Source of the DNA: a virus
Length of the DNA: 64,000 nt
Virus record (IMG/VR): IMGVR_UViG_3300025648_000012
Coordinates: 64,001-128,000 of that record
Reading direction: 5' to 3' (one strand)
A model generated the notes under the pieces. It was not told the DNA's origin. It ran no database searches and saw only the letters and a program-made list of their open reading frames with translations. Positions within the stretch are counted from its first letter, which is position 1. The number at the start of each line of letters is the position of its first letter. The translations under genes and the position numbers were made by a program. This document shows, one piece after another, positions 30,391 to 35,618 of this stretch.

Positions 30391-30771
30391 ATGAAAAAAA
30401 TCTGGATTACATTTAGTAAGCATGGATTACATAAATACCCAAATGCTCCGGTTGAGGTTGGATATTTAGCTAATGAGCATAGACACCTATTCAAGTTCAA
30501 AGTAACAATTGAAGTTTCTCACTTAGATAGAGAATTAGAATTTCACATGGTACAAAACTATTGTGAAGGCATGTACAGTTGTGGGGTTTTAGAACTGAGT
30601 AATAAATCCTGCGAAATGCTAGCAGTCGAGCTTTTAGACAAGCTTCACAAAAAGTATACGTATTTTCCTAATTCAGAGGATTTTAGATATCTCGAGGTTG
30701 AAGTTTCGGAAGATGGAGAATGCGGGGCCATTTGCGATGTAACTGATTTACTTAGGAAAACTTTAGAATGA
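30391..30771 (+). CDS. dpdL: QueD-like T-fold protein, probable CDG decarboxylase (DpdL)
   Basis: LANEHRHLF fits the LxxxHRHxF signature I recall for DpdL. Also RELEF, SCEMLA and EVSEDGECGA. Context is folE/queD/queE without queC. Confidence 0.72.
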   Translation: MKKIWITFSKHGLHKYPNAPVEVGYLANEHRHLFKFKVTIEVSHLDRELEFHMVQNYCEGMYSCGVLELSNKSCEMLAVELLDKLHKKYTYFPNSEDFRYLEVEVSEDGECGAICDVTDLLRKTLE

Positions 30772-31802
30772 ACATTCTTGTAACCGGTGGGTTTGGGTAC
30801 ATTGGATCTAACACTGTTGTAAAATTAATCCAATCAGGTCATAAGGTAGTTATTCTAGATAACTTAGTTAATAGTTTTTTAACTACAATCTCAAAAATTG
30901 AATCTATAACTAAAAAAGGGGTGCCTTTCTTTCTTGAGGATTGCGGTAATACTTCCGTTGTCATATCCATTCTAAAAGAATATTCTATTGATACCGTAAT
31001 CCATTTTGCTGGTCTAAAATCAGTAACAGAGTCTGTGCTTAAACCCATTGAATACTATAATAACAATGTTGCCGGTACCCTATCGGTGCTTTTAGCCATG
31101 AAAAATACTGGTGTAACTAGGTTAGTATTTAGCTCTTCAGCTGCGGTTTACGGAATTACAGAAGAATCACCAATAACAGAGTTGCATAGTTGCAACCCAG
31201 TAAATTCATACGGTCAATCTAAATACTTAGTTGAAAAAATTCTTAAGGATGTTTGTACAAGCTCTCCCATGTGGAAAGTATTGTGTTTACGGTATTTTAA
31301 TCCCATTGGATCTGATACTACAGCTAGTTTGGGAGATAATCCAAAAAGCCAAACTAAAAATTTAATTCCATTGCTATGTAGAGTAGCTCAAGGTGAAATT
31401 CCCCATGTAGACGTATACGGAGATAACTTTAATACTCGGGATGGTACTGGAGTTAGAGACTATATTCATGTTGAGGATGTAGCTCAAGGCCACTTGGCTG
31501 CTCTTACTGCCCTTAATAACGTTGCTGGGTTTGATGTAGTTAATTTAGGAACTAGTAAAGGCTACACAGTATTAGAAGTAATAAAAACCATGGAAAAAGT
31601 TTCTAAAAAGTCAATACCATTTCAAATTTGCTCAGCTAGGCGAGGGGAGATAGATTGTTATTATGCGGATGTTACAAAAGCAAATAACCTTTTGGGGTGG
31701 AAAGCAACGCATGATTTAGAATCAATGTGTAGCTCAGCTTGGCATTTTGCAAACAATAAGGGATTAACTCATGCAAACAATAGTTCACTCCAGTATTCCT
31801 AA
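30768..31802 (+). CDS. galE: UDP-glucose 4-epimerase
   Basis: TGGFGYIGS, HFAGLKSV.ES, SSSAAVYG, YGQSK, LRYFNP, DGTGVRDYIHV. Confidence 0.95.
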   Translation: MNILVTGGFGYIGSNTVVKLIQSGHKVVILDNLVNSFLTTISKIESITKKGVPFFLEDCGNTSVVISILKEYSIDTVIHFAGLKSVTESVLKPIEYYNNNVAGTLSVLLAMKNTGVTRLVFSSSAAVYGITEESPITELHSCNPVNSYGQSKYLVEKILKDVCTSSPMWKVLCLRYFNPIGSDTTASLGDNPKSQTKNLIPLLCRVAQGEIPHVDVYGDNFNTRDGTGVRDYIHVEDVAQGHLAALTALNNVAGFDVVNLGTSKGYTVLEVIKTMEKVSKKSIPFQICSARRGEIDCYYADVTKANNLLGWKATHDLESMCSSAWHFANNKGLTHANNSSLQYS

Positions 31803-32640
31803 ATATGCAGTAATTGGTACTAATAGCGCTGGAAAATCTACAGCTACGTATTTAGCCTGTGGTATTCTAAAACAACAAGGAATAAACGTTGATGGAATTT
31901 TTCAACAGGATAGGCGCAGACCATTTCCTACAGAGTTAATGGGAAAGTACTTAGAAGCTCATTATTGGCAGTTAGCTAATTTAATTTCTGTTGAGTCTTA
32001 CTTTTCTCTAATACAGTCTGGTACAGACGTTATTTTATCCGATCGTTCAGTATTTGACTTATTTGAGTACGCTAAATTTCAATGGCCTCAATCTATTGGG
32101 GCTCTCGAGCAATTTATTTTGACCTATACTGCTACTTATACCAAGTTATTTTATTTGAAACCTATAGAGTATGTTGATGATGGTCAAAGACCTCCCAAAG
32201 ATTTTGTTAATGCTGTTGACGTTTTAATTGAAAAAGACTTACCGGTTAATACAATAAGAATCCCTTTACAAAGAAATTCTGGAGTAAACCCTGGTGAGTT
32301 CATAGCTCAAAGAATAGCTTACGATTTGAAGTTAGCTAAATTAGGTTTAAACTCTATAAATTCTCGCCTTATTGGCAGTAGAGGGTGTATGACTCACCGC
32401 ATAGATTCTGATTGGGATATTGTAACTACAGTAGGTGAAATTGAAAAGAATCCTTTGCTAAACTCTATTGAAAAAAGAAAAGATAGTGGAAAAAATTCTA
32501 ATTCAAGAGGTCTGCTTGGAAAAGCTCCAACTCCCTGTTATATAGTAAAGAGTTCAACTTTTGACATTATAGTTCATGAGACCATTGAAGAAGTTATACT
32601 GTACGACTCAATAACTCCTTATACGGAAATTTTTCTATGA
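31771..32640 (+). CDS. P-loop nucleotide kinase (AAA_28/dNMP-kinase-like) fused to a Pol-beta-type nucleotidyltransferase-like domain
   Basis: GTNSAGKST, LSDRSVFD and DDGQR, then C-terminal IGSRG......SDWDIV. Confidence 0.65.
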   Translation: MQTIVHSSIPKYAVIGTNSAGKSTATYLACGILKQQGINVDGIFQQDRRRPFPTELMGKYLEAHYWQLANLISVESYFSLIQSGTDVILSDRSVFDLFEYAKFQWPQSIGALEQFILTYTATYTKLFYLKPIEYVDDGQRPPKDFVNAVDVLIEKDLPVNTIRIPLQRNSGVNPGEFIAQRIAYDLKLAKLGLNSINSRLIGSRGCMTHRIDSDWDIVTTVGEIEKNPLLNSIEKRKDSGKNSNSRGLLGKAPTPCYIVKSSTFDIIVHETIEEVILYDSITPYTEIFL

Positions 32641-33974: not shown

Positions 33975-34443
33975 TCAAGAACCACATTTATTTACTGGAA
34001 TAGAAGTCGAGCATTCCCCGTATTTTGGAGAAAAAACTCTTTTTGTAGTTGGAACCGTTGAAAAAGAAAAAATAGAAAAAGCTCTAAAAATAGAAAACTG
34101 TACGCATTTATATTTGGGAGCTAATCAACACTTTTCAGATTACGTAATTGAGTTAGCAAAAGAATTTAGTAACTTAATTCACGTAACTGTTGATATTCCT
34201 TATTTGCTATATATAGATGAAGTGTTTAGTAATGAGCTACTTCACCCAAGTCTTAAAAAAGTACACTTTATGCTCAGTGCCCCACTTGTAGTTTCACACA
34301 GATTACTTTCCATTAAAGTTGATGATTCTGTAAATAATAGGCGTAATCCAGGAGTGTGGGTGTTTCCTATTACGTCAAATACTAAAAATTTTACACCTTG
34401 GTCAGCTTATAAAAATGATGTACTTTTAGGAGAAAAGTTTTGA
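33937..34443 (+). CDS. Protein of unknown function inside the modification cluster
   Basis: FTGIEVEHSPYFGEKTLFVVG, HLYLGANQ, SIKVDD...NPGVW. Overlaps both neighbours. Confidence 0.65.
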   Translation: MENIMEPPFLLRSQEPHLFTGIEVEHSPYFGEKTLFVVGTVEKEKIEKALKIENCTHLYLGANQHFSDYVIELAKEFSNLIHVTVDIPYLLYIDEVFSNELLHPSLKKVHFMLSAPLVVSHRLLSIKVDDSVNNRRNPGVWVFPITSNTKNFTPWSAYKNDVLLGEKF

Positions 34444-35618
34444 AAGTATTTTATATGGGGTTAGAATCAATAGTCTCAAGATACACCTACCAATTAACTA
34501 ATTGGAATACTCGAGTATTTGAGGAGCTTGGAGTTAATTACGAGATAGTTACTGGGGAAGAAATTCCAGAGGCTAAAGGACATATTTTAGTAGGTTCAGT
34601 TTTGGATGCGCATAACCGAGGATACTACTCTTTAACGCAAACAGCTAATTTGGTAAAACTACACCAACAAGGTAATATAACCAGTACAGATGTAATTTTT
34701 TATGAGGATATGTTTACTCCAGGAATAGAAATTCTTCCTTATATTTTTGCTCAAGTTCCTATGAATAAACGACCTAAAGTTTTTGTTAGGTGTTTAGCGC
34801 AAACTATTGACCCAGACGATTTTACTAACCGGGAAGGTATGTTTGGTTTCATGAGAAGGTACGAACAGTTAGTAGATTCTTTCGTTACTGGCATTCTATG
34901 CGCTTCGGAAGAGATGGTGGCTAACTTAAAAATTGCTGGATTTAAGTCTGACTTGTATGTAACTGGTTTACCCTTTGGTAAAGCTGAAGTTCAAGAGAGA
35001 GTTACACCTACTCCTTTTGAAAACCGTCCGAAAACTGTAGTATTTGCTGCTCGGTGGGATAGTGAAAAACAACCTAAATTTTTTATAGAGGTTGCAAAAT
35101 TAGTAAAGAAAAAACTTGGAAATTCAGTAAAATTTGTAGTCTTGAGTGGAAGAAAAGGAATAAACTCAAATGATTTAGACTTGAAGACTGCTGCTATTGA
35201 GGCTATTCAAGACTCAACTATTGAGTGGAAAGATGGGCTTTCCAAAAATGAATACTACACGTGGCTAAATAACAGTAGAGTTCTTTTTAATTGTGCATTG
35301 CAAGATTGGGTTAGTAATACGGTAAGTGAAGCCGATGCTTTAGGCTGCAATACTGTTTTTCCTGCGTATAGATCTTTTCCAGAGGTTTTCAAAAGTAGCC
35401 GAGAACATTTGTATATACCGTTTAATGTGGAAGACGCAGCACTCCTCATTGAAAAAAATATAGAACAACCACAATCTGATTTAGGAGAAGTTTCTAGTAA
35501 TCAGAATCTTTCCATATATAAAACAGTCAAAATTTTTCAGGGAGTAGGTAAAGAGTACCTACGGTCAAATTTAGACTATAGAGGAAAGTTGTACGGAGCA
35601 ATTTCAAAAGGAGATTAA
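34440..35618 (+). CDS. GT-B (GT4-like) glycosyltransferase
   Basis: VVFAARWDSEKQPKFF, LSKNEYY...NCALQDWVSNTVSEA..LGC..VFP, SFPEV. Confidence 0.8.
   Translation: MKVFYMGLESIVSRYTYQLTNWNTRVFEELGVNYEIVTGEEIPEAKGHILVGSVLDAHNRGYYSLTQTANLVKLHQQGNITSTDVIFYEDMFTPGIEILPYIFAQVPMNKRPKVFVRCLAQTIDPDDFTNREGMFGFMRRYEQLVDSFVTGILCASEEMVANLKIAGFKSDLYVTGLPFGKAEVQERVTPTPFENRPKTVVFAARWDSEKQPKFFIEVAKLVKKKLGNSVKFVVLSGRKGINSNDLDLKTAAIEAIQDSTIEWKDGLSKNEYYTWLNNSRVLFNCALQDWVSNTVSEADALGCNTVFPAYRSFPEVFKSSREHLYIPFNVEDAALLIEKNIEQPQSDLGEVSSNQNLSIYKTVKIFQGVGKEYLRSNLDYRGKLYGAISKGD

Follow-up and report, generated by a model that had tools for sequence, protein, structure and literature searches.

Gene Content of the Deazaguanine Cluster

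We analyzed a window of 64,000 bases, corresponding to bases 64001-128000 of the 142,721-base IMG/VR record IMGVR_UViG_3300025648_000012 of an uncultured phage, in which a glycosyltransferase (GT) and a uridine diphosphate (UDP)-glucose 4-epimerase (GalE) are encoded among genes for 7-deazaguanine modification of DNA. Positions are those of the window. The record carries direct terminal repeats; in spite of these, its CheckV completeness is only 60%, a caveat for every absence reported from the whole record. According to the list of open reading frames (ORFs) and to profile scans with Pfam, PHROG, and TIGRFAM, every gene between 28.8 and 37.8 kb lies on the plus strand. Their order is primase, QueD, DpdL, GalE, P-loop protein, DpdA-like protein, 168-amino-acid (168-aa) protein, GT, 63-aa ORF, QueE, a small winged-helix protein, and FolE. 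The features used below are as follows.

29810..30373, plus strand: QueD (6-carboxytetrahydropterin synthase); PF01242, 85.3 bits; phrog_2389, QueD-like; motif C-KHL-HGH
30391..30771, plus strand: DpdL-like T-fold protein, 126 aa; motif LANEHRHLF; QueD cysteine absent
30768..31802, plus strand: GalE, UDP-glucose 4-epimerase; TIGR01179, 389.7 bits
31771..32640, plus strand: P-loop nucleoside/nucleotide-kinase-like protein (AAA_28 type); Walker A GTNSAGKST
32637..33974, plus strand: divergent transglycosylase of tRNA-guanine transglycosylase (TGT)/DpdA-like type, 445 aa; DSGGFQ, TSDS, CxCxxC...H
33937..34443, plus strand: conserved 168-aa protein of the module, function not assigned; family conservation
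34440..35618, plus strand: GT4-type (retaining) GT-B glycosyltransferase; PF00534 and PF13692 above cut-off; AlphaFold2 fold
35620-35811, plus strand: small ORF, 63 aa
35821..36621, plus strand: QueE (7-carboxy-7-deazaguanine synthase, radical SAM); phrog_2076, E 1.2e-40; PF04055, PF13353
37074..37748, plus strand: FolE (GTP cyclohydrolase I); PF01227, 191 bits; NF006824, 270.9 bits, above cut-off
18864..19358, plus strand: purine-type phosphoribosyltransferase (PRTase), about 10 kb upstream of the cluster; PF00156, 42.8 bits, above cut-off
17549-18352: ThyX, the thymidylate synthesis enzyme of the record

A first-pass annotation, made from the letters of the window, had placed GalE and a GT-B enzyme among dpd genes, overlapping their neighbors at 30768 and 34440. 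Both enzymes are identified here by profile or fold and are co-oriented with a deazaguanine cluster devoid of QueC, and both overlaps are confirmed. The ATGA at 30768-30771 combines the stop codon of DpdL with the start of GalE, and the TTGA at 34440-34443 combines the stop codon of the 168-aa ORF with a TTG start of the GT. This TTG is preceded, 7 nt upstream, by an AGGAG Shine-Dalgarno sequence, and the resulting N-terminus, MKVFYMGL, is kept in homologues. Four-base overlaps are common in operons and by themselves carry little weight. The 63-aa ORF, which has its own AAGGAG site, occupies the gap between GT and QueE. A promoter and terminator scan of 28.5-38.5 kb gave counts not above those of shuffled sequence, so that operon boundaries are not defined by such signals. 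No match was found to near-identical DNA among GenBank phages.

The presence of FolE, QueD, and QueE together with the absence of QueC is the gene content expected of a DpdL-type system, which puts deoxy-7-deazaguanosine (dDG) into DNA. No PF06508 (QueC) match exists in the whole record, and the preQ0/queuosine route can be ruled out on this basis: the pathway ends at 7-carboxy-7-deazaguanine (CDG) or at 7-deazaguanine. The 126-aa protein contains LANEHRHLF, which fits the LxxxHRHxF signature, and the adjoining QueD retains CxxxHGH. LxxxHRHxF is the defining signature of DpdL, the proposed 7-carboxy-7-deazaguanine decarboxylase (PMC10516641). The window DpdL is 55% identical to the protein adjoining DpdA3 in phage ACP17.

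The 445-aa protein has no Pfam match, and no Pfam-recognizable TGT (PF01702) was found in the whole record; direct comparison with the sequences of solved structures gave no meaningful match either. Its family amounts to 30 proteins among 5.8 billion searched. In these 30 proteins DSGGFQ, the TSDS aspartate, and C319/C321/C324/H343, forming a CxCxxC...H zinc site, are invariant. At E 1.7e-8 the family profile matches the archaeosine TGT 1iq8; at E 7.8e-9 it matches the ACP17 ORF of 424 aa that occupies the DpdA3 position, a remote similarity only. As the TGT hallmarks are invariant and the profile matches both proteins, the 445-aa protein is predicted to be a DpdA-like transglycosylase of a rare type.

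A Retaining Glycosyltransferase

The GT matches PF00534 with 34.9 bits (gathering cut-off 26.4). Its AlphaFold2 model (predicted local distance difference test, pLDDT, 85; predicted template modeling score 0.87) adopts a GT-B fold made of two Rossmann domains. The top Foldseek matches of this model are BshA/MshA (E 2e-10). VIA Z scores of 23-25 were obtained with sucrose-phosphate synthase, MshA, and BshA, over 320-340 residues, and with SenB; the range is 22-25 when PimA is included. Z scores with the tetrahydrobiopterin glucosyltransferases 5zes and 9v0l are 21.7-22.7. Direct sequence comparison with solved structures gave no meaningful match. On the model, the nearest solved relatives of the GT appear to be retaining GT4 enzymes. 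No special likeness stands out to the T4 DNA alpha- and beta-glucosyltransferases (AGT and BGT), with which the first-pass annotation had suggested a structural comparison: small-molecule GT4 enzymes are nearest, and in a viral library the one match with a DNA alpha-glucosyltransferase annotation ranks no higher than 48th. Judging from the modeled fold, GT4 enzymes all fall within a few Z units of one another, and the fold is probably a weak guide to the acceptor.

Four residues, R205, K210, D289, and E297, are invariant in 40 GT homologues. The R205/K210 diphosphate-binding pair and D289-x7-E297, a D-x7-E version of the GT4 E-x7-E motif, were placed at canonical positions by pattern only. This conservation fits an active donor site, and the GT looks catalytic.

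GalE and the Sugar Donor

The epimerase scores well above the TIGR01179 equivalog cut-off of 262.3 bits and aligns with solved bacterial GalE structures with 306-323 bits. Its catalytic residues S124, Y148, and K152 are present, as is the glycine-rich NAD site GGFGYIGS at residues 7-14. Its sequence identifies it as a genuine UDP-glucose 4-epimerase. In structurally established GalE classes, a bulky tyrosine gatekeeper restricts the enzyme to UDP-glucose (UDP-Glc) and UDP-galactose (UDP-Gal). Y298 of the window protein aligns with the Escherichia coli gatekeeper Y299, the bulky residue of GalE group 1, and thus points to UDP-Glc/UDP-Gal, not an N-acetylhexosamine (HexNAc) sugar, in this phage. 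GalE had initially been taken to imply a UDP-Gal or UDP-N-acetylgalactosamine (UDP-GalNAc) donor; in this phage the first half of that statement agrees with the gatekeeper and the second does not. A UDP-GalNAc/HexNAc donor is possible in related marine loci, where the gatekeeper column of 75 GalE proteins holds Thr (43), Leu (28), Val (2), or Ser (2), in an alignment at only about 33% identity.

Four loci with three gene orders were sampled for GalE; their proteins score 291-328 bits, all above the TIGR01179 cut-off. With the GalE proteins of the marine loci, the window GalE shares only about 33% identity; its scores with bacterial GalE are far higher. Because of this distance, and because GalE is absent from L090, L093, and L094, the viral contigs nearest to the window, a 4-epimerase seems to have been recruited beside the GT more than once. 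Repeated recruitment in turn argues that the GT uses a 4-epimerized UDP-sugar.

Reciprocal Association of the Glycosyltransferase with DpdL

The gene neighborhood was surveyed in 80 IMG/VR loci encoding proteins 48-57% identical to the GT (36 clusters at 90% identity), gene presence being scored within 10 kb of the GT. DpdL is present in 78/80 of these loci and GalE in 75/80. QueE (66-70/80), FolE (58-59/80), the purine PRTase (55/80), and the 168-aa protein (48-54/80) are also frequent, and a TGT-like protein of 450-540 aa occurs in nearly all loci not cut by a contig end. The GT directly adjoins DpdL in most loci. The genes of the module are found in at least four distinct orders; their proximity has therefore outlasted rearrangement. 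In the converse sample, built from an alignment headed by a GT-less phage and yielding at least 580 DpdL stretches in IMG/VR, the GT is encoded in 73 of the 80 loci fetched; of the seven without it, most are contigs ending beside DpdL.

The GT also lies inside a deazaguanine cluster in four cultured phages: ACP17 (Acidovorax), BCSR5 (Burkholderia), the PA5oct-like PAC2 (Pseudomonas), and BUCT-ZZ01 (Synechococcus), whose polymerases differ. In ACP17 it is located between the DpdA3-like gene and DpdL. The window itself encodes a family A polymerase, phiRSL1-like, and the marine loci a T4-like family B polymerase. The module is widespread, with hundreds of IMG/VR contigs in addition to the cultured PA5oct-like phage, ACP17, BCSR5, and BUCT-ZZ01. 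The pairing of GT, DpdL, and GalE exceeds local chance by a wide margin. The genomic evidence for assigning the GT and GalE to the deazaguanine pathway of DpdL type is strong.

Glycosylation of 5-hydroxymethylcytosine (hmC) or 5-hydroxymethyluracil (hmU), supplied by the host or by an undetected phage enzyme, is the only well-established type of phage DNA glycosylation. We consider its probability here to be close to nil. As the first-pass annotation had noticed for the window, no pyrimidine hydroxymethylase is in view, and the hydroxymethylase elsewhere in the genome that it had named as a possible source of the acceptor does not appear: PF00303 (ThyA and dCMP or dUMP hydroxymethylases) and PF12851 (TET/JBP) gave no match across the 142.7-kb record, the same searches giving matches in control genomes. 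Thymidylate synthesis by ThyX is confirmed. The GT bears no outstanding likeness to T4 AGT/BGT, and it tracks DpdL, not any pyrimidine gene.

Two near-identical marine contigs, L041 and L046, represent the sole type of GT locus without a detectable DpdL. There, a 340-aa ORF with no Pfam match (L041:8963-9985) occupies the DpdL slot, between the DpdA-like gene and the GT. A distant GT relative (27% identity) is encoded in Xanthomonas phage PhiXhv-15 (L086, 99781-112512) with GlmS and an N-acetylglucosaminyl deacetylase-like gene and with no deazaguanine genes in view; it may belong to another sugar pathway, possibly glucosamine-based.

The Glycosyltransferase Is an Accessory of the DpdL Route

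Five viral contigs, L090-L094, share the rare DpdA type of the window. Three of them, L090, L093, and L094, encode both DpdL and the GT. The other two, L091 and L092, lack DpdL, the GT, and the 168-aa gene altogether; in L091, the one of the two submitted to the Pfam scan, QueC is present in place of DpdL.

These losses bear on whether the GT and GalE might be unrelated to deazaguanine and glycosylate the host envelope or a virion or other phage protein, their position merely reflecting an early/middle gene region. GT4 enzymes and GalE are indeed frequent phage auxiliary genes for modification of surface polysaccharides, the PhiXhv-15 relative stands with GlmS and a deacetylase and without dpd genes, and neither promoter nor terminator signals mark an operon in the window. 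The joint disappearance of GT and DpdL from L091 and L092, with QueC confirmed in one of them, makes such a function improbable, as do the direct adjacency of the two genes in most loci and their reciprocal co-occurrence in 78/80 and 73/80 loci, across at least four gene orders and at least five phage lineages.

Conversely, DpdL occurs without the GT. Cellulophaga phage phi19:2 has a DpdL match (E 3e-25), and the search of this phage with the GT profile was negative. This negative result is meaningful because the same profile detects the GTs of ACP17 and PAC2 at only 22-25% identity. The DNA of phi19:2 holds plain dDG, as determined by liquid chromatography-mass spectrometry (PMC10516641). Rhizobium phage RHph_I1_18, Aeromonas phage Ahp1, and Vibrio phage Bakedbeans also encode DpdL, with the GT nowhere in their genomes. 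Since dDG-containing phi19:2 and other DpdL phages lack it, the GT is an accessory of the DpdL route, dispensable for dDG. A tailoring enzyme that acts after DpdL would be expected to show such a distribution.

The expression of ACP17 dpdL and dpdA in E. coli gave no dDG, and the authors suggested that other enzymes are needed (PMC10516641). The GT might then be a structural or activating partner of the DpdA3-like enzyme for the insertion of 7-deazaguanine, the base staying free of sugar. Gene placement would agree with such a role: in ACP17, BCSR5, the PA5oct-like phage, and numerous marine loci, the GT and the DpdA-like gene are direct neighbors. Nevertheless, dDG is made in phi19:2, which has no GT; the GT residues for donor binding and catalysis are invariant; and the co-recruitment of a UDP-sugar 4-epimerase makes sense only if a sugar is consumed. 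We therefore hold a purely structural role to be highly improbable.

A Proposed Hexosylated 7-Deazaguanine in Phage DNA

We propose that the GT and GalE tailor the DpdL-type pathway to yield a hexosyl-, probably galactosyl-, 7-deazaguanine in DNA, a proposal to which we give about an even chance. According to family assignments and published work, FolE, QueD, and QueE would convert GTP to CDG, DpdL would remove the carboxyl group to give 7-deazaguanine, and the TGT/DpdA-like enzyme would exchange this base for guanine in the phage DNA, producing dDG. The retaining GT4 enzyme would then transfer a hexose from a UDP-sugar to the deazaguanine, either on DNA or on the free base ahead of its insertion. 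In this phage the sugar would most likely be galactose, provided by the phage-encoded UDP-Glc to UDP-Gal epimerase. Hexosyl-7-deazaguanine in virion DNA would protect it against host nucleases. In the interpretation first given to the locus, the membership of both genes in the cluster is upheld by comparative genomics; galactosylated deazaguanine in DNA is plausible only.

The candidate attachment atoms are the N2 amine, as in huimycin, and the free C7/C8 of the pyrrole ring. A chemical precedent exists for N2: the GT4-type enzyme HuiG puts N-acetylglucosamine (GlcNAc) on this atom of the 7-deazaguanine base in huimycin, and the dapiramicins share this linkage (PMC7439116). Attachment at C7/C8 would account for the dependence of the GT on the decarboxylating DpdL branch. 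In a more specific version of the proposal, which we regard as unlikely, the sugar would be joined by a C-C bond to the C7 freed by DpdL, and this hexosylated 7-deazaguanine would replace guanine in the DNA of many phages. C7 is favored over N2 in this version because the GT depends on DpdL rather than on QueC. Glycosylation at C7/C8 is our own inference, and we know of no precedent for it by a retaining GT4 enzyme.

Several observations weigh against a hexosylated deazaguanine in DNA, which rests wholly on gene association. The 7-deazaguanine made through DpdL has no hydroxyl group, and we know of no precedent for N- or C-glycosylation on DNA by a retaining GT4 enzyme. The nearest folds (BshA, MshA, SenB, and the pterin glucosyltransferases) act on small molecules, not on DNA, and T4 AGT/BGT are not among the top PDB structural matches listed. 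The GT family is acidic, with a median isoelectric point (pI) of 5.0 and a pI of 5.8 for the window GT. GalE is found neither in the contigs nearest to the window (L090, L093, and L094) nor in the ACP17 cluster, and L041 and L046 encode the GT but no detectable DpdL. Finally, neither the decarboxylase activity of DpdL nor the DNA activity of DpdA3 has ever been reconstituted (PMC10516641).

Some of these points would suit a GT acting on a soluble molecule of the pathway, such as free 7-deazaguanine or CDG, a nucleotide made by the PRTase, or a pterin intermediate. In that case the sugar would serve only temporarily, to activate or protect the molecule or as part of a carrier form, or would end in a soluble glycoside never entering DNA. 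In addition to the acidic character of the GT and its structural proximity to BshA, MshA, SenB, sucrose-phosphate synthase, 5zes, and 9v0l, HuiG glycosylates the free 7-deazaguanine base (PMC7439116). The purine PRTase and, in the lineage of the window, the P-loop kinase-like gene accompany the module, which hints at nucleotide-level chemistry. However, the Z scores of GT4 enzymes are nearly equal and the fold says little about the acceptor; a TGT/DpdA-like enzyme is a regular part of the module and, in T4-like relatives, has a DNA polymerase C-terminal tail (described below), which points to the DNA level. A soluble glycoside would be without evident benefit for a lytic phage, and the N2 and N9 edges are the parts of the base that TGT pockets normally recognize. 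On balance we think a soluble acceptor less likely than a DNA-borne product, although it is the main rival and a serious one.

Published data on PA5oct, which carries the GT-deazaguanine module as does the PA5oct-like PAC2, speak for the proposed DNA-borne hexosyl-deazaguanine. The DNA of PA5oct resists restriction enzymes in a pattern interpreted by the authors of a 2025 preprint as pointing to a modified G, the chemistry of which is undefined (PMC12191111). A 2021 survey of jumbo phages mentions only a deazaguanine system for PA5oct, and Cui et al. 2023 make no mention of a sugar, an epimerase, or a phosphoribosyltransferase (PMC10516641). A full-text literature search, with most subscription journals outside its reach, found no report of a glycosylated deazaguanine in DNA.

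To our knowledge, the glycosylated DNA bases described so far are all pyrimidines (hmC, hmU, and base J), and DNA 7-deazaguanines carry small C7 groups or none. If true, a sugar-bearing deazapurine would constitute a new class of DNA hypermodification. It could explain the failed reconstitution of dDG from ACP17 genes as well as the undefined "modified G" of PA5oct, and would have effects on restriction, CRISPR, and sequencing behavior in phages that are abundant in marine and fresh waters. The C-C-bonded version, if true, would be the first C-glycosylated base in DNA and a chemistry new to the GT4 family.

Other Members of the Module

The PRTase has a weak match to xanthine/hypoxanthine PRTase models. 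Besides the 55/80 GT loci, it is conserved in the modules of BUCT-ZZ01 and PAC2 (copies at L042:10779-11264, L001:7087-7548, and L085:8330-8764). Guanine released by base exchange could be recycled by this enzyme to GMP and then to GTP for use by FolE, or else the enzyme could produce 7-deaza-GMP and so serve a route at the nucleotide level.

For the P-loop protein, profile matches are all below threshold (AAA_28, 23.4 bits; phrog_2107, thymidylate kinase, E 2.8e-6). Its structural neighbors in the Atlas are AAA_28 proteins, with template modeling scores of 0.54-0.59, and a sequence search of the PDB gave no match. An additional C-terminal part of about 100 aa gave a weak Atlas hint of a nucleotidyltransferase, with scores not above 0.85. 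The gene adjoins DpdL only in the lineage with a family A polymerase, that is, in the window, L090, and BCSR5; copies are located at L090:7615-8502 and L084:4245-5171. The product may be a nucleoside or nucleotide kinase for a deazapurine.

The 168-aa family is characterized by the motifs F-x-G-x-E-V-E, TLFVVG, H-I-Y-L-GAN, K-L-DD, and NPGVW. It accompanies the GT and the 513-aa type of DpdA, is also encoded in ACP17 and in the PA5oct-like phage, and is absent from three GT-less DpdL phages. Some homologues have a long low-complexity C-terminal extension with a Lys-rich end. The AlphaFold2 model is poor (pLDDT 66.7) and gave no fold match above Z 4.1, the best being QueE fragments, within noise; an Atlas look-up was uninformative.

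In marine T4-like relatives, the C-terminal peptide of the 513-aa DpdA-like protein (...FFEF) is that of the family B polymerase encoded on the same contig. Examples are L036:5776-7332, L037, L044:4514-6070, L051, and L082. Among 2110 plus-strand ORFs, only the polymerase (19) and the DpdA-like protein (14) end in FF[ED]F, and the last four residues of the two proteins are identical in 11/49 loci holding both. No common tail was found between the DpdA-like protein and the family A polymerase of the window itself. The polymerase tail of T4 and RB69 is a docking element for the sliding clamp. By analogy, the base-exchange enzyme may travel with the clamp at the replication fork, and a complete replacement of G could be explained in this way. 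A polymerase-like clamp-docking tail was also considered for the GT and rejected, as the C-terminal tail of the GT family, DYRKHVAKAKYE, is basic and does not resemble that of the polymerase.

Downstream of the cluster, a 505-aa protein resembling single-stranded DNA-binding proteins (39092-40609) has a C-terminus made of alternating Lys-rich and acidic blocks, ending ...KKSKKVEDDDDDDF.

Comparison with Known Systems

Four known systems share features with this module. The eukaryotic enzymes QTGAL and QTMAN, compared here by description, make galactosyl- and mannosyl-queuosine in tRNA and so also place a hexose on a 7-deazaguanine derivative in a nucleic acid; QTMAN (GTDC1) is of the GT4 type. 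They act on the cyclopentenediol of queuosine, whereas the target here is presumably DNA. The analogy with galactosyl-queuosine drawn in the first-pass annotation fails on this point: the galactose is attached to the cyclopentenediol, and this moiety cannot be formed by the phage pathway, since QueC, and with it preQ0, preQ1, and queuosine, is absent.

HuiG of Kutzneria albida (PMC7439116), likewise compared by description, is a GT encoded beside FolE/QueD/QueE-type genes, in a family of biosynthetic gene clusters carrying the GT4-type N-terminal domain PF13439. Unlike the phage module, that system makes a soluble, O-methylated antibiotic from preQ0, depends on QueC, uses UDP-GlcNAc, and has no transglycosylase.

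Like T4 AGT/BGT, the window protein is a phage GT-B enzyme predicted to use a UDP-sugar, encoded among DNA-metabolism genes and presumably serving protection against restriction. It differs in being acidic and of the GT4 type (Glycos_transf_1), in having no acceptor-making hydroxymethylase, and in an implied donor that is 4-epimerized instead of UDP-Glc.

The closest parallel is the dDG system of Cellulophaga phages phiST and phi19:2 (PMC10516641). Both have FolE, QueD, and QueE, no QueC, a DpdL with LxxxHRHxF, and a very divergent TGT-like transglycosylase, and in both the genes lie beside replication genes. In contrast to the Cellulophaga phage, with no GT and plain dDG, the window and most environmental DpdL loci add a GT4 glycosyltransferase, usually accompanied by GalE, a purine PRTase, and the conserved 168-aa protein. 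The deazaguanine gene set for guanine replacement is already known; here it is accompanied by the GT and GalE.

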